From Pristiophorus japonicus (Eukaryota), in the NCBI RefSeq assembly GCF_044704955.1, contig NC_091978.1, positions 158,410,001 to 158,474,000 of the forward strand: 64,000 nt of DNA, read 5' to 3'. Below, in pieces: positions 34,811-63,366 of this stretch. A program made the position numbers and the translations under genes. Numbering within the stretch: the stretch's first letter is position 1; the number at the start of each line of letters is the position of its first letter. The notes beneath the pieces were generated by a model. The model did no database searches and was not told the origin of the DNA. It worked only from the letters and a program-made list of their open reading frames with translations.

Positions 34811-37800
34811 TCCCAGTTATTTTTTTTAGCATGTGGTGGCCATTGCACAGCCACCACACGGGCTTGACAGAGCTCGGTCTTGGTCCAGTGACAAGGATTA
34901 ACCAAGACGACTGGAGACCAGCTCTGCTACACGGACCGAGCGCGCACACATATAGCAGTGTGGGCTGACCTGTGCTGCCCCTGGGCCCTCACCTCTTACA
35001 GGCCCCAGACTCACGCCTCTCCTGGGCCCTGGTCACTTCCTTCTATAAACTCTTGCCGATCCTTTGTCCTGTTGTGTATATACATTCTGGCACCACTAGA
35101 GGGTGCAACTGGTGGAGACAGGGGGTTTCCTGCCCTGGTGGCAGGGCCCAGTATAAAAGGCTGCACACCATACTTGTGCCTCACTCTGGAGTTTGGAATA
35201 AAGGAGCAAGGTCACTGCATTTTGAGTACAACACATTGTCTCGTGGAGTCATTCATAAGTACATTACAGACAGAATAACTGGCAACGAGAATATGGACTT
35301 TCACATGATTATGGCTACCTTTGGCACACTAAAAGACTTTGCATCAGGTGATGATTGGGATGCCTTCACAGAAAGGCTCGAGCTATATTTCGTGGCAAAC
35401 GATCTGGCAGGGGAGATGGACGCATCGGCGGAGAAGTGCAAGGCTATACTGCTGACCAGTTGTGGGCCCGAGGTCTACTGCCTCATCAGGGACTGGCTGG
35501 CACCCACAAAGGCCAAGGATAAGACATACGATGAGCAGACTGAATGGCACCGTGTGATTTCGGCATGCACCTCAGCGAAGCAGTGCAAGACATCTTCGTT
35601 ATGGGAATTGGCCACGAGGGCCTCCTGCACAAGCTATTATCTGCCGACACCACAGTCAACCTGCAGATGGCCATCATCATCAGTCAGGCATTCATGACCT
35701 CGGCCTGCAGCACCTAGCAAATTATTCAACCTGTGGACTGAACCCCGGCAAGTACTGTACACAGAATGGTGCCTTTCACAGGCAAGACTGTAGAACGTGG
35801 ATCTGCCCAGGGCAGAGAGCACAGACCTCAGGGTTCCAGAACTCAGAGTCCACCCAGGGGTGCTCATCGAGTAGCACCATGCTGGTGTTGCGGAGGAAAC
35901 CATAGGGCTCACCAGTGTCGGTTTGCTGAGTATGTATGCAACTCCTGTAACATGAAGGGCCACCTCCAGCGTATGTATAAAAGAAATGCGACTCACCGTC
36001 TAGCAGAGGAGTCATTAGATGACTTTGAATCCAGCGGGGAGTATGATGATTTGGCCAGAGAGGCAGCTCAGCCCCAAGAAGAAGTGTATGGAGTGTATAC
36101 CTGCACCACCGATTGTCCTCCAGTGAAGATGGAAGTCGAGATAAATGGTGTTCCAGTCTTCATGGAAGTGGACACGGGAGTGAGCCAGTCAATGATGAGC
36201 TAGGATGCCTTTGAGAGGCTATGGAACGAAAAACGACCCAAGCTGGTTCCAGTACAGGAAAAGTTGTGCATCGACACCAAGGAGCTGATCCCAGTCTTTG
36301 GTAGTGCGGGTGTAAGTGTAATCCATAATGGCGTGGTGCACAAGTTACCTCTGTGGATTGTTGCAGGTGATGGTCCAACGCTACTCGGAAGAAGGTGGAT
36401 GGGGAAGATCCAGTTGAAATGGGAAGACCTCTTCACTCCAGCAATCGATGTCCCCCACGCTCAGAGGCAGAGCAAAACCTCACCTTCGCTTGGGCCAGGC
36501 ACCAGAGAACAGACCAGCGCAGCACAGACCATCCATCACGACTGCGTGGCAATGATACGACATGAATGACCTAAAAGTACCTTCCCGGCTCCAGTGGCAG
36601 GACTCCTGGGGAGGAAGATCAAATTCACAGGCACTCTTCCAGCTTTTGTGGCAAAATCGCGGGAGAGATGGATCAAGGCAGTCGACCTCGAGGACAGAGG
36701 CAAGATGGCGTCCCTGATGCAGCGAGGGCCAGCGTGGCTGAAAAAAAAGATGGCCACGGCAATATCATGAGGTGCAACGATGAGAGATCAACACATGGTG
36801 TCTAACAAAGGATTTGACTGGGGTAAAGCCAGCAGGGTTCTCTTAAAGGTGACCTGTAACCAACTGAACTTAAAGAAACATTGTATGCATGGCAGTCAAT
36901 GTAACAAACCGATTAAGATTGTGAACAGAATGTTCTTGCGAATTGTCGGTACTATTCCTAATGTAAAGAACAAAATGTTGTTGCGAGATGTCGGGAATAG
37001 GATGTCCCCAAAAGTAGCAAGCGAATGACCTCAGGAAGGTGAAGGCACTGATCCTGATACCCGGCCTCAGGTATATCCCATGCTGCAGGCACCTGATGGC
37101 ACTATTCGCCACGGACCTGGAAACGAAAATGGTGCCAATACGCGCAGTCGGCCGCCGTTACCCACTACCCGGGTGGAGACGGCGCAGTCCCCAGACCCAG
37201 TCGCTACCCGGCCATGTCTGGGAGCGAAAGATCAGAACCAACGAGTTCCCCAAATGGGACCTGGAACAGCCAGATTCCCAACACCGTTAGAGAGCAGGCA
37301 GAAGATTCTGCAGCCCTCAAAGGACAGGGAGGCCACACACATCTGTGGCTCTGCCCACCACTAAGCAAAGGCCCTGAGTCCTGGCAAGGTGAGCAAACCA
37401 AGCCCATTCCGCTAGCAGGGGGTGCAGCGCCACCATCAGACGACTAAGACCCCATCTGGTTGCTCTGGAACCAGCGTCCTTGCATAACTGTACTGCTACC
37501 TCAGTACTGACCATGACTGAACCATGAATGCAACCTACCCAATCCTGGCGCACGACCGTAAAACGTAACGAATGTAAGTCATTGACTAAGGTGTCACGAT
37601 ACAAACTGTAAACATTTTTCTTCATCCTTTCTTTGTACTTGCACTGTGTCTGATCCTGTATGTTAATGTAACGGGCCAGTTGCATGATCTCGCTGTGGGG
37701 GGTGAATGTATGTAACCATGGACACACACATGGATCACACCCAGAACCCTCTGGAACCTCCACTGCATCATCGAACCATCCAAACTGGTAACCACTACCC

Positions 37801-38527
37801 AACATTGTGGCAAAAGGAATTGGGGGTTAACAGGGAGAGAGCCAAGCCAAAGCACAGCCAAGGTGCAAGGGCTATTGGCACTTAAGTCTGGGGAGAGCTA
37901 AGCCAGAACACATAGTGCAAAGGTAATCGGCACAAAGGACTTGGGGGAGAGTGATGTTGTATATGCAGACTATGGATGTACTCTCTGTGTAGTCACTGTG
38001 TGGTTGCATAAGATGGAGACTTGTTTACCTGAAGTACCATCAATAAGCTTTACACTGTGTATATACAGGCTGGCACCACTAGAGGGTGCAACTGGTGGAG
38101 ACCGGGGGTTTCCTGCCCTAGTGGCAGGGTCCAGTATAAAAGGCTGCACACCATGCTTGTGCCTCACTCTAGAGTTTGAAATAAAGGACTAAGGTCACTA
38201 CAGTTTGAGTGCAACACATTGCCTCGTGGAGTCATTCATAAGTACATTACAGACATAATACTTCTGCTCTACTTTCCAGGCTGTTCTTTCAGCCACAGGA
38301 CAGTGTTTTCTGGAATCTCCATTGCTCTACCTCTCTCGCTGCTTTAAGCCTCTCTCTTTTACCATGCACTCTGGCCCCTGAATCTCATTTCATGCTCGGT
38401 GTCTACCATTTCTCCCTGTGAAGCACTGTCAGAGATTTTGTTATGTTGCAAGTATTATATAAATGCCCATTATTGTGTTTTTCCTTCTCAAATCAAGACT
38501 CTGTTGCTGAATGTCTGCTAGTGAAAT

Positions 38528-44087: not shown

Positions 44088-45757
44088 AAAGACTGTAACG
44101 GGTGAGGTGTCATTATCAGCATTTACCTAACTGTGAGAAGGACACTGGTACAATTAATGAAATGTAGGCACATTGTTAATCTGACACTATAGTATCCTAT
44201 GTTTGTTACAGTCAATAAAATGTCATCAAAATTGAAGTTCTTCATTTGTCTCTGTATTGGTCCCCAGCATGAAGTGAGGCACTGACATTCTCCTTTATTG
44301 AATATCATCCAATGGATAAATCTCAGCTGGATCCTCTTGTAGATCACAGAACAAGAATAACATTGTTTATTAATTATTTCAAAATGATAATCTTGTTTCT
44401 TATATATTTATAATATTAATTCCTTAACCATCTTGAATGATCTTTCTCTCCAAATACCCTCTCCCTTAAAAATAAACAAAACAAAACATGAGACAGTAAA
44501 TTTCCTGAGGAAGATAATAACATAATTAGAATGTGGTGGTCAACCAGGGAACTAACAGGAGGAAGAAGCTCTGTGAAGATTCCCATTCTCAACCATGCAC
44601 ATGAGTAGAAGAGACAAGGCTGAAGTGTACGCAAAAGCCATTATGGAAAAATGCTGATGCTGAGTTACAAAACTGCTTTTGTGGAAGGCTCTGTGAAGTT
44701 CAAATCCCCAGGCCCAGCAGCTAAAGGAGCAAATTGCAGCTCCTCCAATTCCACTTGTCTTCTTCTTAAGCAATCCCTTGGAATTGAGGATGACTTGCTT
44801 CCATACTGTGGTGTATGTAGCACTCAAATCACTGACTCCACACGGTCTGGTGTTGTAGTAACTGCTGTGACCTTAGTCCTTTATTGTGTAACTCCAGAGT
44901 GCCTCTCAGGTGTGGTGGGCAGCCTTTTATACTCTGTCTTGCAGGTACTTTCAGGTCTCCCACCACAGCACTCTCTGTGGTGCACCATTGTACTTATACA
45001 TTTAATGTACCTGGACAATACATAACATCTCACTTCCCCCCCCGCCCCCGCAGTTCCAAAAGCCATTGCCAGTAACCTCGGCCTTGCTCGTCCTGGTTGA
45101 GATGTTATGTCAAAAGGTTGCAGGTACACTGAACAGTTATTTAATCCCAGCTCACTGGGTGAGGTATGCTGCCCCTTTTTGCCCGAGGTAATGGGCTGCG
45201 CTGAGACAGGGTATTGCAACTAGTGCGTTGCCTCTGTTCTCAGTAGTTGCCTAAGTGGCTCATCTGCAGCCGCTGAACCATTGCATGAATCACGTAAAAT
45301 CGAAAATCGCCTTGGTCCATTAGATATGTTAGTCACGGACCCCTTAATCCTTTTACTTGTACATCGTGGTATTAATTCTTTTCGTAAATCATTCATAGCG
45401 ATCATTTTAAACACAGTACCCATATAGAATCAAAATATTAACTCTTATCCTAAATCACATCATCATACAAATCACATTACTCAATTAGACTCGCTCTTGC
45501 CTTACAAAAGTCTCTTTGTGGTGTAAGGCCCTTTTAAGGCTCCCGGGTGCATTTCCCTTTTAAGATTCCATCTTGTGGTTCCCACCAGGCTTCCACTGGG
45601 CGTCGCCATTTTAGTTGCTCTGCTTGCTTTTGTTCTGCTGAGCTCGCTGGCATGGCGTTTTAGGAAGAACTAGAAGGGGTAAAGAAGGAAGAAAGAAGAA
45701 AAATGGCCAAGAATGAATGAATCTTGAATTGTGGCAGAAATGGTTCTGTGGATTCGA

Positions 45758-46240
45758 TCAGTCATAGTCCCTATGGCCTCCGTAACTGCCGTAACTGCTG
45801 CCTAATCCGCCGCTCTGGCTCTTGTGCCCACCCAAGTAGCTGTCGCGTTCTCCTGGGTCATACTTGCTGCCGCTGTAGCCTCTGCCGCCTCTGTAGCCTC
45901 CTCTCCTGCCGTTCGGGCCACCGCTGTAGCCTCTGCCGCCTCTGTAGCCATCTCTCCTGCCGTTCCGGCCACCGCTGTAGCCTCCGCCGCTGCTGTAGCC
46001 TCCTCTCCTGCCGTTCGGGCCGCCGCCGTCCCGGCCTCCACCGTAGCCGCGACCGCTGCCCGACTTTCTCTCCGCGTGGGCCCCCCCGATTTGTCGTCCG
46101 TCGATGGATGTCCCGATCAACGCCTGCTCTTCCAGGGTCTGCTCGTCTGTGGAGGCTGAGGCTGCAAGATTGCTTGAGGTCAGGAGTTCTGGGCTGCTGT
46201 CGTCTGTGTGGGGATTTAGACTGCCGATGAATGGCTTCTT
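45758..46240 (-). pseudogene. CIRBP/RBM3-like retro-captured fragment (degenerate RRM + RGG tail)
   Basis: KPFIGSLNPHTD, STDEQTLEEQ and ALIGTSIDGRQIGGAHAERKS parallel CIRBP KLFVGGLSFDTNEQSLEQ and [20 protein letters not shown]. These are followed by a G/R/Y/S-rich tail ending RDYD*. Confidence 0.7.
45871..46023. repeat. Three ~51-bp tandem units encoding (GGRGYSGGPNGRRGGYR)-like repeats
   Basis: Direct repeats of CCGCTGTAGCCTCTGCCGCCTCTGTAGCCTCCTCTCCTGCCGTTCGGGCCA. Confidence 0.85.
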
Positions 46241-49200
46241 TCTCCTTCAGCTCGGTCGGCGCTGCTCTTTGGGAACCTGGGGAACTGCAGTCTGTGGAGG
46301 AATGAAGTCTTACCAGCTCCCACGGACCTTCCCCATCCACCTCCTGCCGAGAAGCGTGGGCCCATTGCCTGCAATGACCCACAAAGGTAAACCGTGCGTC
46401 TCGCCCCCGTGAGATACCTGCACCTCCGCTCTGTCAAGAACAGGTATCAGTTCCCTGGTGTAGGTGCGCAGCTTCACCGTGATCGGGACCAGCTTGGGTC
46501 GTGCAGCTGGGTTGACCCACAGTTTCTCAAAAGTTCTCTGACTCATCAACGACGGACCCGATCCAGCGTCCACTTCCATACTCACTGGGACTCCATTGAT
46601 CTTGACTTCCATAATCACTGGGGCCGAATCGTCGGTACACGTAGACAGTCCAAACAACGCCTCATCTTCTTCTGCCTGCCCCTCGCTGGATGGTGGATCC
46701 TCTACCATCTCCTCAGCCACACGGTGAGTCAGGTTTCTTTTGCACATACGCTGAAGGTGGCCTTTCGTGTGGCAGGTATTGCACCTATACTCCGCAAACC
46801 TGCACCGGTGAGCCCCATGGCTTCCTCCGCAGCACCAGCATGGTGCTACTCGATTAGACTCCCTCGGCGGACTCTGAGATCCAAGACCCCGAGATCCGTG
46901 CTCCCTGCTCTGGGCAGAGCCATGTTCTTCAGTTTTGTCCATGGTGGGCGCTATCCTGTGGACAGTGCCTGCCGGGTTCGAGACTGTATGGATCATCTGC
47001 TTGGTGCTGCACGTCAAGGTCATAAATGCCCTACTGATGGTGATGGCTTGCTTCAGGGTGACTGTGGGTTCAGTGGATAGCAGCTTGTGAAGGAGACCCT
47101 CATGGCCAATCCCCATAACAAAGACGTCTCGCAACGCGTCGTCAAGGTGTGTGCCAAAATCACATGGCGCCGCGAGTCTCCTGAGGTCCGCAACATATTT
47201 GGTGACATCCTGGCTCTCAGGTCTGCAGTGGTGGTAGAATTTGTGCCGGGCCGTGAGGATGCTCTCCTTCGGTTTCAGTTGGTCATGAATGAGTGCGATC
47301 AGCTCCTCATATGACTTATCCCTGGTGCTCGCGGGTGCCAACGAAGCCCTGACGAGACAGTAAACCTCATCACCACAACTGGAAAGCAATATCGCCTAAC
47401 GCTTCTCTCTCAGTGCATCCGTGTTCCCCGTCAGGTCGTTTGCTGTGAAGTAATACTCAAGCCTTTCCGTAAAGGCCTCCCAATCATTGCCCACCGTAAA
47501 ATCCTTTAGCGAGCCCAGAGTAGCCATGGTTGCGTGAAGTTCGTCCGTGTCTTTGTCGCCAATGTGGTGTATGTAGCACTCAAATCACTGACTCCACACG
47601 GTCTGGTGTTGTAGTAATTGCTGTGACCATAGTCCTTTATTGTGTAACTCCAGAATGCCTCTCAGGTGTGGTGGGCAGCCTTTTATACTCTGTCTTGCAG
47701 GTACTTTCAGGTCTCCCATCACAGCGCCCTCTGTGGCGCACCATTGTAATTATACATTTAATGTACCTGGACAATACATAACATCTCACTAAAATTAATT
47801 CTCAGGTGACTGATGAGTCCAATGTGGGACCTACAGTCTCTGTCACAGGTGGGGCAGATGGTGGTTGGAGGGGTGGGTGGGTGGGGTACTTGGGTTGTTA
47901 TGCGTTCCTTCCGCTGTTTGCGCTTAGATTCCGTTTGCTCCTGGCGAAGAGACTCGAGGTGTTCGGTGCCTTCCCGGATGCTTCTCCTCCACTTTTTGCA
48001 ATGTTGAGCCAGAGATTCCCAGGTGTCGGTGGGGATGTTGCACTTTTTCAGGGAGGCTTTGAGGGTGTCTTTGAAGCATTTCCTCTGCTCACCTGGGGCT
48101 CTCTTGCCGTGTCGGAGCTCCGAGTAGATCGCTTGTTTTGGGAGTCTTGTGTCAGGCATTCGGGCGATGTGGCCCGCCCAATGGAGCTGATCGAGTGTTG
48201 TCAATGCTTCGATGCTGGGGATGTTGGTCAGAGCGAGAACCCTGACGTTGGTGCACCTATCCTGCCAATGGATTTGCAGAATCTTGCAGAATCTTGCAGA
48301 GGCAGCATTGGTGGTACTTCTCCAGTGTTTTGAGGTGCCTACTGTACATGGTCCATGTCTCTGAAGCATATAGGAAGGTGAGTATCACTATTGCTCTGTA
48401 GACCATGAGCTTGGTGTCGGGTTTGAGGTCCTGGTCTTCAAACACCCTCTTCCTCAGGCGACCGAAGGCTGCACTGGCACACTGGAGGCATTGTTGGACT
48501 TCGTCATCGACATTGACAGTAGGCTCTAGAGGTATGGAAAATGGTCCACGATTTCCAAGATCTCGTCGTGGATTTTGATAATCGGGGGGCAGTGATGTGT
48601 GGCGGGGGCAGGTTGGTAGAGGACCTCTGTCTTACGGATGTTTAGTGTGAGGTCCATGCTCTCGTATGCTTCGATGAAGGTTTGGAGTTCGACCTCCGAG
48701 TATGCGCAGATGCAAGTGTCATCTACGTGCTGTAATTCAATGACAGAGGATGGGACGACCTTGGATCTGGACTGGAGGCGATGGAGGTTGAACAGTTTCC
48801 TGTTTGTTCTGTAGATTAGCTCCACTCCAACAGGTAGCTTACTGAGGGTGAGAAGGAGCATTGCAGCATGGAAGATTGAAAAGAGCGTTGACACAGCCTT
48901 GCTTGACCCTGGTCCATACGTGAAGTGGGTCTCTGGTGGATCTGTTGGTCAGGATCACGTATTGCATGTCATTGCGAACCAGGCGGAGGATGGTGACTAA
49001 ATTTGAGGAGGACACTCCATAATCCCTCACGATTGACATTGTCAAAGACCTTTCTGAGGTCGAAGATGGTCATGTACAGAGGTTGGTGCTGTTCCCTGCA
49101 TTTCTCTTGAAATTGACACATCTTGTGAAGATCACATCTATTGTGCCCCTAAGTGGGTGGAATCTGCATTGTGACTCTGGGAGGAGCTCTTCAGCTACTG

Positions 49201-60155: not shown

Positions 60156-63100
60156 TGTTATGTATGTGAACATTGTAACTGTGTAAGACTTCCCACCAGA
60201 GGGCGCAACTGTTGGAGGCCCAAGGGTCACCTGCACACCTCGTGCAAGGGAGTATAAAAGGTTGTCTGCCATGCTGCGTAGGCACTCTGGAGTTGTATTA
60301 AAGAGATTAAGGTCACATCAGTTTTAGCTCACAGTACTCAGTCTTGTGGAGTTCTTCCATACTTAACAATTGGCAATGAGTAACAGATTACGAACTTTCA
60401 TGCGGCCATGACTGCTGTTGGTACTTTAGAGAGATTTGTAGAGGGTGATGATTGGGAAGCTTTCGTTGAGCGTCTTGACCAGTACTTCGTGGTCAACGAG
60501 CTGGATGGGGACGATCAAGCGCAGGGCGAATCTCCTCACCATGTGTGGGTCCTCAATATACGGCCTCATCAAGAATCTGCTAGCACCGGAGAAACCAGCG
60601 GAGAAGACATATACAGAGTTGTGTATATTGGTTCGGGAACACTTCAAGCCGAAGGAGAGCATCTTAATGGCCAGGTATCGCTTCTACACGCACCACCACT
60701 CCGAGGGCCAGGACGTGGTGAGTTATGTCGACGACCTGAGAAGCCTTGCGAGAACTTGCGAGTTTGCTGGATTTTTGGGGGAAATGCTGCGGGACTTTTT
60801 TGTGCTTGGCAATTGCTACGAGGTTATTCTTCGCAAGCTGCTGTCCGACGCATCCCTAAACCTGAGCAAGGCTATCACCATAGCCCAGGCATTCATATCC
60901 ATGAACGATTATACCAGATAGATATCTTCCCCAGCATCGAAGCTCACCGGCAAGTACTGTGCATAAAATAACGTCGCTAGCAGGCAGAACTGCATATGGC
61001 AGGATCTACATGTCTGCAGCTGCAAGACCTAGGATGACTCCGAGTCTGCCATCGGAATGCAAATCCATTAGCACCATGTTGGTGCTGCGGGAGTAATCAT
61101 CAAGCCCATCAATGCCGATTCAAGCACTATGTGTGCAAAGGCTGCGAAACAGTGGGGCACCTCCAGCGAATGTGCACGAGTGCTGCGACTCACCACGTGG
61201 CAGAGTCGGCAGAGGATGATCGATCCAGCGCAGATCACAGAACAAACAAAAGAGGCAACTCAACCCGAGGAAGAAGTGTATGGGGTACACACCTTCACTA
61301 CCAAGAGCCCTCCTATTATGCTGAAAGTCAAATTGAATGATATTCCGGAATCAATGGAGTTGGACACGGGGGCGAGTCAGTCAATTATGAGCCAGTTGGC
61401 TTTTGATAAACTGTGGGGCAACAAGGTACAAAGGCCCAAACTGAGCCCGATTCAGACAAAGCTGTGCACCTATACCAAAGAGCTCATACCAGTCATTGGC
61501 AGTGCGGCAGTTAAGGTATCGTACGATGGAGCTGTACATGATTTATTACTGTGGATTGTACCAGGCGATGGCCCAACACTATTCGGCAGAAGCTGGCTGG
61601 GAAAGATTCTATGGAACTGTGACGACATCAATGCACTATCTTTAGTGGTGACGCCTCGTGCGCCCAAGTGCTGAGCAAGTTTCCGTTGCTATTTGAACCA
61701 GGCATCGGCAACTTCACAGGCGCCAAGGTGCAGATCCATCTAGTCCCTGATGCAAGGCCTGTTCATCACAAAGCTCGAGCGGTTCCATATATGATGAGAG
61801 TGAAAGTCGAGATCGAACTGGACATACTTCAACGAGAGGGAATTATATCGCCAGTCGAGTTCAACGGCCCCAAGTTTCCACACGCGGCGAAAAAGGCGCA
61901 CCTCAGAGCTGGGCGCCTGTTTTTCGCGCCGAAAACGGCGCCGGAAAAAAAGTGCGGTATTCTCGAGCTCCTTGGAGCTCGATGTCTGCTTGGCGCGGCG
62001 CACAGGGGGCGGAGCCTACCACTCACGTCGATTTTGTAAGTAGGAGGGGGTGGGTACAATTGAAATGAGGCTTCTTGGTGCCGGCAACCCTGCGCGTGCG
62101 CGTTGGAGCATTCGCGCACGCGCAGTCTGAAGTAAACATTGGCACTTGGCCATTTTTAAAAGTATTGCAGAAAAAGTGAAGATTTGTTTCTTGGACCCCT
62201 GCAAAGGCTTGTATTTTAATTTTCTTGATATTTCTGTGTGTGAGGGAGTGCTTTTAGCAGCACTGCTGAATAAATCACCTGCTGAAATCAGTGAGTTCAG
62301 CTTTTCACTGCGAAACTTGCAGAACCAGTGCCTGCAAATTAAGGACTGTGTGTTTGGAGAAATAAAAGTGCCAATTCAACTTTGCAATGGATCAATTTCC
62401 ACCAAGAACAAAGAATTTCTTGCATGAGGAAGCAAACCATTACATAATATGTGGTGCACCCATTCTGCAAATTTAAATATAAAGATGTCGATGTGGCTGC
62501 CTCTCCCTGTCCAAATGGCCTCAGTCAGTCCCCTTCACAGCTCAAAGGCTGCTGCTGTTCCCGACCAGCCACTGACGCCGCTGCAATCCCATGGCCGAAT
62601 AGCCTCAAGTCCGTCCGGGTGCTGCATCTTCGCGGGGAATGAAGGCCTGCCTCAAGCACCGCAGCTCAGCTCGAAGGCTGCTTGCTGCCGCTGCCGTTGA
62701 GACGAGACACTGACGCCACACCCCTGCCTGTCTCCAATATGAAAGGCCTGCCTGAAGCACTTTCACACAGGTAGGAACATGGTTTATTTAATCTTTTCTT
62801 TGCTTTTTATTCAGGTTGGATTTATTTGTATAATATTTCTATAAGTATAACTAAGGATTGATTGTAGAATTTAATGACTTCCCTTCCCCCCCTCCCTCCC
62901 CCCCCCACCTCGTTCCCAACGCCTAATTTGTAACCTGCGCCTGATTTTTAAAAGTGTAGACAATGTTTTTTCAAGCGTACAAAAATCTTCACTTACTCCA
63001 TTCTAAGTTCGTTTGGAGTACGTTTTCACCGTGGAAACTTTGAAATCAGGCGTCAGTGGCCGGACACGCCCCCTTTTGAAAAAAAAATTCTGTTCAAAAG

Positions 63101-63343
63101 TGAAACTGTTCTACCTGACTAGAACTGCAGAAAACTAAATGTGGAGAATTCCGATTTCTAAGATACTCCGTTCTACACCAGTTGCTCCTAAAAATCAGGA
63201 GCAAATCATGTGGAAACTTGGGGCCAATGAGTGGGCCAGTCTGATTGTTCCGGTGTTGAAAAGCGATGGCATAGTCAGAATCTGTGGAGACCACAAGGTA
63301 ACAATCAACAGAGTCTCGTTACAGGACCAGTACCCGCTACCCA
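60156..63343 (+). mobile_element. Gypsy LTR retrotransposon 5' half (LTR, gag, protease, start of RT), degenerate and cut off at the assembly gap
   Basis: LTR 60156-60368 and PBS TGGCAATGAG. Gag from 60408 and protease LDTGAS. Pol reads ...GIISPVEFN|EWASLIVPVLKSDGIVRICGDHKVTIN...QYPLP. Confidence 0.9.
61866..63225 (+). mobile_element. Harbinger-type non-autonomous DNA transposon inserted in the Gypsy pol gene
   Basis: 17-bp perfect TIRs GGCCCCAAGTTTCCACA...TGTGGAAACTTGGGGCC. 3-bp flanks AAC/AAT. Internal remnant MDQFPPRTKNFLHEE resembles the Myb/SANT ORF start at ~40580. Confidence 0.85.
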
Positions 63344-63366
63344 GGAGAAGAGGGGGGAGAGGGGGA

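Follow-up and report, generated by a model that had tools for sequence, protein, structure and literature searches.

Why does a retrotransposon without pol carry part of a host cold-inducible RNA-binding protein (CIRBP) in frame with its own Gag and protease? The question is raised by a Gypsy-type element on the minus strand at positions 44807 to 47783 of a 64,000-nucleotide stretch of the genome of the shark Pristiophorus japonicus (contig NC_091978.1, positions 158,410,001 to 158,474,000), the whole of which is called the window here. A first-pass annotation of the window had proposed that a non-autonomous element captured a CIRBP mRNA, lost the core of its RNA recognition motif (RRM), and expanded the RGG tail into a functional module of a Gag-protease (Gag-PR) polyprotein. 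The element in the window is one decayed copy of a family. The explanation that we consider probable is that this pol-less, Gypsy-type family captured host CIRBP and antisense 7SL sequences by template switching, and that the tail so acquired is a tolerated passenger.

Host origin of the cargo

The cargo of the window copy matches the DNA of the host CIRBP cluster in four blocks (22/28, 28/28, 78/88, and 125/139 nucleotides), and the match crosses the stop codon and runs about 40 nucleotides into the CIRBP 3′ untranslated region (3′UTR), which bears out the proposed capture. Similarity of the translated segment to CIRBP or RBM3, which the first-pass annotation had expected, was clear against the genome's own CIRBP (pairwise BLASTP, E=1e-5) but weak in general databases: the window cargo alone matched no Pfam family, and the better of its two PDB matches was a weak one to RBM3 (E=0.48). 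Seven proteins were returned in a protein search with the cargo; one of them, a CIRBP labelled Pristiophorus japonicus, is encoded with 100% identity by an intronless open reading frame (ORF) of this genome. The suggested comparison with the host mRNA was informative for the 3′UTR, whereas the search for spanned exon junctions does not apply, as the donor coding region is intronless. The window copy is laid out as follows (all features on the minus strand).

47563..47783, minus strand: 5′ long terminal repeat (LTR), 221 bp, TGT...ACA
47555..47561, minus strand: primer-binding site (PBS), TGGCGAC core, common to pol-bearing Gypsy families of the genome
46610..47527, minus strand: gag, with two Cys/His knuckles at 46840-46742 and a private stop at codon 44
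46346..46609, minus strand: aspartyl protease, residues 307-394
46241..46321, minus strand: protease end and Pro/Arg-rich linker, with private stops at codons 406 and 427
46200..46240, minus strand: remnant of CIRBP RRM strand 1 (RNP2), altered
46151..46208, minus strand: antisense of host 7SL RNA nucleotides 39-96, a net in-frame insertion of 57 nucleotides
46040..46151, minus strand: start of CIRBP RRM helix 1 fused to the C-terminal end of the RRM, with RNP1 and more deleted in frame
45870..46026, minus strand: RGG/YGG repeat, tandemly expanded, 51 nucleotides × 3.1
45758..45863, minus strand: CIRBP C-terminus, ending in RDYD and the host stop codon
45721..45757, minus strand: first part of the host CIRBP 3′UTR
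45050..45720, minus strand: 3′ non-coding region, common to sister lineages, for which no source was found
45028..45049, minus strand: polypurine tract (PPT)
44807..45027, minus strand: 3′ LTR, 221 bp

A single frame of 590 codons runs from 47527 to 45758 with three stops and no frameshift. Its tail (99 amino acids; 39% Gly, 15% Arg, 12% Tyr, four RGG) has the RGG/YGG low complexity of CIRBP and RBM3, and an intact RRM with RNP2 and RNP1 is lacking both in the window copy and in the naturally open copy L013. The claimed loss of RNP1 and tandem expansion of the tail held; neither copy has an RRM_1 match. Among the other sequences examined, the Pfam RRM was matched by the host protein P0005 and by one copy of the element, L035, and not by L013, P0003, or P0004.

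The TG...CA LTRs, the PBS, the PPT, the target-site duplications (TSDs) found in the family, and the homology of Gag-PR identify the element as a Ty3/Gypsy derivative. The Gag-PR protein search gave 93 matches, mainly to K02A2.6-like Gypsy polyproteins with reverse transcriptase, RNase H, and integrase. The element may belong to the Mag clade of Gypsy; two Cys/His knuckles are seen, and its PBS is presumably of the tRNA-Ser type. The protease site reads DAG in the window copy and DTG in L013, and the Pfam match to aspartyl protease (residues 307-391/394) lies below the cut-off in the former and above it in the latter. The LTR pair of the window copy (47783-47563 and 45027-44807) has diverged by 3.6%. 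A repeat finder reports LTRs of 228 nucleotides, as seven flanking bases match too: those at 47784-47790, beyond the 5′ LTR, equal the bases between the PPT and the 3′ LTR. The copy has no TSD, and this absence together with the flank match possibly reflects an aberrant end or gene conversion. About 185 bp of the 3′ non-coding sequence of its relatives is missing, and its insertion site is, we assume, the 3′ end of an RTE-type long interspersed element (LINE).

A pol-less family of five lineages

A 23-nucleotide motif at the end of the protease has 1,041 exact matches in the genome and none when reversed; this number is a floor for the copy number, confirms the expected multicopy family, and rules out a one-off retrocopy insertion. 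A search with the protease–cargo junction gave 1,626 first-look candidates, and the 40 that were scored span nearly the whole query at 93-100%. Lineages were sampled as the first 100 motif matches in genome order, all on contig C1. No pol was found within 1 kb after the protease in any of the 100, in agreement with the non-autonomous, LTR-, PBS-, and PPT-bearing element of the first-pass annotation; pol matches near three D copies and one B copy belong to neighbouring elements beyond the LTRs.

By alignment score the sample comprised 39 N, 19 D, 16 B, 15 C, 9 S, and 2 broken copies. Reassignment of L181 and L183 by eye to B, like L109, gives 18 B and 37 N, so that the window lineage (B, C, and D) accounts for 52 of the 100, S for 9, and the CIRBP-less N for 37. 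Full-length copies measure 2.2-3.5 kb, and a 5-bp TSD with no more than one mismatch flanks 67 of the 75 full-length copies outside D. In the gag-PR tree (nine truncated or duplicate loci excluded, three long-branch rows from interrupted copies, bootstrap unsettled), the D copies group as a clade (100/100) that nests with C-type copies; they resemble B at about 80% in their LTRs and have a much altered cargo. N groups with S (87/87), and 20 of 28 N copies examined keep a scar in which the S-type 5′UTR start is joined to the S-type 3′ junction. N copies have therefore likely lost a CIRBP cargo, as judged from this grouping and scar. Median LTR divergence is 4.5% in B (n=15), 5.9% in C (19), 5.0% in S (9), 5.0% in N (17), and 3.4% in D (12). 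D is the youngest lineage by this measure, and the ages of the lineages overlap; as no LTR divergence is below 1.8%, the burst of amplification is apparently over.

The interruptions of the window copy are its own. Its stops are absent from the other 29 of the 30 closest loci, and two of 156 loci, L013 and L059, have an uninterrupted frame between the start of gag and the stop of CIRBP, as the predicted continuous Gag-PR-cargo frame demands. In the 30 closest loci a stop is nowhere the most frequent codon of a column, and no shared frameshift lies between protease and cargo start, which rules out a family-wide stop or frameshift for these loci; seven of them have small indels in a run of G around codon 481. 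In protein searches, Gag/linker-CIRBP fusions were found under one species label only. Among other sharks and rays there were seven longer protein matches, of which the three inspected are tandem CIRBP gene models without gag, and no such fusion was found in metagenome contigs. For annotation it matters that several UniRef entries of the species (P0001-P0004, P0006, and P0008, annotated as "RNA-binding protein 3-like" or as uncharacterized) represent fragments of the present transposon family.

Probable serial capture from two CIRBP paralogs and 7SL

The host donors belong to a cluster of CIRBP-like genes in tandem (C7, 219.41-219.77 Mb; L031-L034 and L037), at least five in number and without introns in their coding regions. 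Neighbouring CIRBP genes appear as one fused protein in gene models of other sharks and rays, and the cluster looks conserved across these animals and mis-annotated. Both paralog types concerned here are present in a gene model of another shark. In the window lineage the cargo comes from the RDYD-ending paralog (paralog 1) and extends, in frame with Gag-PR, from RRM strand 1 to the 3′UTR. The first-pass annotation had not foreseen that the S lineage drew on a second paralog (paralog 2, YNQ-ending, L034). The S match to it starts about 80 nucleotides before the ATG and ends at RNP1; the homology begins about 30 nucleotides past a host TATA-like box, a motif identified by eye, and excludes the promoter.

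At eight paralog-diagnostic sites the commonest state in S is that of paralog 2 at all eight, and the commonest state in B is that of paralog 1 at four and of paralog 2 at four, three of these at the 5′ edge. The tails of B score 433-490 against paralog 1 and 169-208 against paralog 2. The pattern at these sites is consistent with, though no proof of, a homologous switch from paralog 2 to paralog 1. Loss of the RRM was stepwise: B lacks RNP1 (−69 nucleotides), C has gained 57 nucleotides, and most C copies have lost a further 51. Tandem expansions of the tail recur in the family, with a longest ORF of 764 amino acids. L035 is the single copy with a whole RRM (Pfam RRM_1, E=4e-22). It is a possible ancestral state, but the gag-PR tree places it next to C copies (88/79), and it may either combine relic cargo with a recombined gag or be a re-capture.

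In N and S copies such as L160, the linker is followed by a leader that is rich in GC and CpG, contains GT/GA microsatellites, and possibly derives from the 5′ ends of additional captured host RNAs. A donor was not found in the genome, where the only matches (96-100%) were taken as family copies, nor was there a match within about 180 kb around the CIRBP cluster.

A stretch of the RRM remnant passed over in the first-pass annotation proved to be 7SL. The 57-nucleotide insert is antisense to nucleotides 39-96 of the genome's 7SL gene L046, with 56/58 identities in L013 and 54/58 in the window copy (46208-46151). Alignment scores of 101-109, compared to a shuffle maximum of 37, were obtained in the antisense orientation only, with nothing in sense. 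At the left end of the insert the five nucleotides CACAG are common to the element and 7SL. An Rfam scan of the element missed this 58-nucleotide piece and gave two unrelated weak matches; direct alignment to the genome's 7SL genes found it. In five D copies (L178, L182, L186, L192, and L149) an eroded 7SL-derived unit of about 18 codons is repeated tandemly in frame. The 7SL gene used for comparison stands in a tandem array with a spacing of about 4 kb (C14, 178.09-178.21 Mb). A first-look search with RF00017 gave 119,045 rough candidates in the genome, a number that may reflect a 7SL-derived repeat family in this shark.

These results suggest the following course. The element would have formed its own Gag-PR particles, and the region after the protease would have offered room for the fixation of template switches to host RNAs packaged alongside. 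The first capture was likely from the YNQ-type paralog, from about the cap site, and a homology-driven switch to the RDYD-type paralog would then have given rise to the window lineage. Switches during minus-strand synthesis would yield the sense pieces of CIRBP, while a switch onto 7SL RNA during plus-strand synthesis would have patched in the 7SL piece and would account for its being antisense. Translation of the tail would occur by default, with the frame only loosely maintained.

Selection on Gag-PR and on the cargo

Selection was assessed by comparing non-CpG variants common to at least three copies, which arose during transposition of the lineage together with some recurrence, with private variants. 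Gag-PR is under purifying selection in all five lineages: its w (dN/dS) for shared variants is 0.40 in B, 0.44 in C, 0.57 in D, 0.62 in N, and 0.54 in S, compared to 0.69-1.22 for private ones. B and C together have 103 non-synonymous and 93 synonymous shared variants versus 717 and 277 private (p=2e-7), a count that omits duplicate loci and four rearranged loci. The cargo behaves differently. Its 55 non-synonymous and 19 synonymous shared variants give a w of 1.12, and its 169 and 68 private variants a w of 0.96 (p=0.66); for shared variants cargo and Gag-PR differ (p=0.0014), the B and C sets containing loci chosen by similarity searches and the repetitive C tail being unscored. Over 62 codons of the RRM remnant, B differs from the host gene by 12 non-synonymous and 6 synonymous changes (w 0.77). 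Purifying selection on the added domain was not found, and the idea of the cargo as a selected functional module was not supported. It is weakened further by the copies that lack CIRBP and by sublineages with the tail out of frame. The cargo would seem dispensable, as 37 of the 100 copies do without CIRBP, most of those examined bearing the S-type deletion scar.

Frame is retained in part. Across the RRM remnant 33 of 55 scorable B and C copies are in frame, and the out-of-frame remainder is largely private decay. Shared shifts also exist: a −1 class in three C copies, a −23 class near the end of the tail in five copies, and an Ala-rich shifted frame of the tail in L109, L181, and L183. Among D copies the RGG frame is reached in only 6 of 13.

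Several observations weigh against the cargo being a mere passenger. No stop occurs among the 55 shared non-synonymous cargo variants compared to 8 among the 169 private ones, which is weak evidence. The linker and RRM remnant contain five indels at the lineage level (−69, +57, −51, and, in 2 copies each, −21 and −18), every one a multiple of three; among the 14 length classes that at least three copies show in the 3′ non-coding region, taken as a control, only 1 is, and at the same threshold the comparison is 3/5 coding versus 1/14 non-coding (Fisher p=0.037). The Gly/Arg-rich tail is kept in B, C, and D despite the loss of the RRM, D, the youngest lineage, having the most basic tail (median net charge +25), and selection on composition is invisible to dN/dS. 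Against the serial history count the gag-PR tree, which fixes neither root nor order of capture, and the failure to find a pol-bearing parent with the same LTRs, a pattern search having given two matches, both to a distant family.

Alternative explanations

These indels, the persistence and charge of the tail, its recurrent expansions, and the share of the window lineage in the sample could all be accommodated if the RGG tail were selected for composition, as a basic, disordered, RNA-binding extension of Gag-PR from which a harmful or useless RRM was removed in frame, or, in a variant of this idea, as a peptide cut off at the old protease–reverse transcriptase site that aids RNA packaging, annealing, or condensation. 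We regard this as rather unlikely. A cargo w of about 1, the shared frame shifts, and the few D copies that reach the RGG frame speak against it, and so does the equal age of the CIRBP-less copies by LTR divergence; moreover, a GC-rich repeat of period three expands in threes and has few stops in its other frames too. It is likewise doubtful, and a little more so, that the pol-less element repeatedly recruited the RGG tail of a stress-granule protein as a second RNA-binding, condensate-forming arm of Gag and stripped off the sequence-specific RRM, with the frame preserved and the tail of its youngest lineage becoming more basic. If it did, the element would compete for the enzymes of its helper, and the series of copies would show a nucleocapsid-like domain evolving de novo from a host mRNA.

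The captured pieces could instead act as RNA, whether as a spacer, as stability or export signals, or through pairing of the antisense 7SL with the host signal recognition particle RNA. Every lineage is about 3 kb long despite different cargo, and among variants in the RRM remnant of C copies none of 13 shared ones compared to 22 of 73 private ones fall inside the 7SL insert, a post hoc count without statistics. However, D copies have the insert in eroded form, L109, L120, L123, L181, and L183 have lost part of it, and B, S, and N amplified without it; a role as RNA appears very improbable. Entry at the DNA level, by LINE-driven or repair-templated insertion of CIRBP and 7SL into a genomic copy that later amplified, we consider very improbable. 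The intronless donor offers no exon junction that would prove an RNA template, and the 7SL piece is antisense and flanked by a repeat of 4-5 nucleotides; yet the left repeat belongs to 7SL itself and thus is microhomology, both CIRBP captures are in sense and directly follow the same linker, S starts near the predicted cap site, and the few junctions inspected by eye had neither a poly(A) run nor a long TSD at the cargo ends. A sense segment of host mRNA inside LTRs, joined at microsimilarities without poly(A), is what LTR-mediated retrocopies display, the microsimilarity having been judged by eye in a few copies with no chance baseline. Template switching with a tolerated tail remains the reading that we prefer.

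Pol-less vehicle and candidate helpers

The family has only Gag and protease and no reverse transcriptase, RNase H, or integrase, like elements of the TR-GAG type. As Gag-PR is conserved in an element without pol, its own protein would have served its own RNA, and, pol being absent, reverse transcriptase and integrase would have to act in trans. Pol-bearing Gypsy families are abundant in the genome, one with an open ORF of 1,356 amino acids. The candidate helpers resemble the pol-less family in their TGTT LTR starts, PBS core, G-rich PPT, and LTR length of about 210 bp; the Gag-PR of the latter is only 44% identical to that of the pol-bearing L066. The missing enzymes would have been borrowed from Gypsy families of this kind, which possess pol and are alike in LTR ends, PBS, and PPT.

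Two further elements lie in the window on the plus strand. At 35071-38253 there is a second LTR element of about 3.2 kb, apparently without pol, with a gag-PR about 70% like that of the CIRBP-bearing element and a post-protease region that does not match the CIRBP cargo; families with Gag-PR but no pol may be frequent in the genome. At 60250-63350 there is a degenerate, interrupted Gypsy element of the pol-bearing type, with gag, protease, and the start of reverse transcriptase.

Known systems and significance

Fusions of retroviral gag with host genes in defective, helper-dependent genomes (gag-onc) resemble the shark element, and a recombinant containing 7SL was reportedly described in 1993. 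Retroviral particles package and reverse transcribe 7SL and are patched with short host RNA segments by way of microhomology, according to two accounts (PMC2175372, PMC4997597). Unlike the retroviral cases, the 7SL patch in the shark became fixed in a family of the Gypsy type and has been passed on to many of its copies. Another close system is the LTR-mediated retroposition that Tan et al. 2016 (PMC5131818) describe in animals, with host mRNA fragments inside LTR elements, template switching at microsimilarities, several donors, and non-autonomous re-transposition. Its cases, as presented there, are young retrocopies counted singly per species, whereas the shark chimera gave rise to lineages that together account for about 60 of the 100 copies sampled from a family of more than 1,000, as a fusion to a Gag-PR under purifying selection that was later edited.

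TR-GAG elements (PMC6022998) likewise have LTRs with Gag or Gag plus protease and no reverse transcriptase or integrase; the class, as defined there, was applied to plants and does not include host-derived, in-frame C-terminal cargo. Host-related domains that act on RNA are present in Gypsy-type elements of orchids (AlkB, PMC9289625) and bdelloids (ORF3s, PMC5408684). These are additional ORFs, AlkB being enzymatically active, while the shark domain is part of a fusion, no longer keeps its fold, and evolves neutrally. No description of the present family was found in the open-access literature, subscription journals, Repbase/Dfam, and supplements lying outside the search.

Capture of host RNA by LTR elements is known mainly from single young chimeras or from laboratory retroviruses. 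The shark family offers a large sampled record from a vertebrate, comprising mRNA pieces of two paralogs, a patch of 7SL, losses, and tandem expansions, in which Gag-PR doubles as an internal control for selection. Judged from substitution patterns, the proposed function of the cargo is unsupported by selection at the sequence level, and an in-frame fusion of a host RNA-binding protein to Gag, though conserved, need not be adaptive. A role for the basic RGG tail at the level of composition is a tentative prediction only; if the tail were useful in this way, this would be one of the rare instances in which an accessory domain is seen while it forms. As with retroviruses, 7SL and abundant mRNAs were likely co-packaged into Gypsy particles in the germ line, and the cargo is likely more a record of the host RNAs that entered these particles than an added function.

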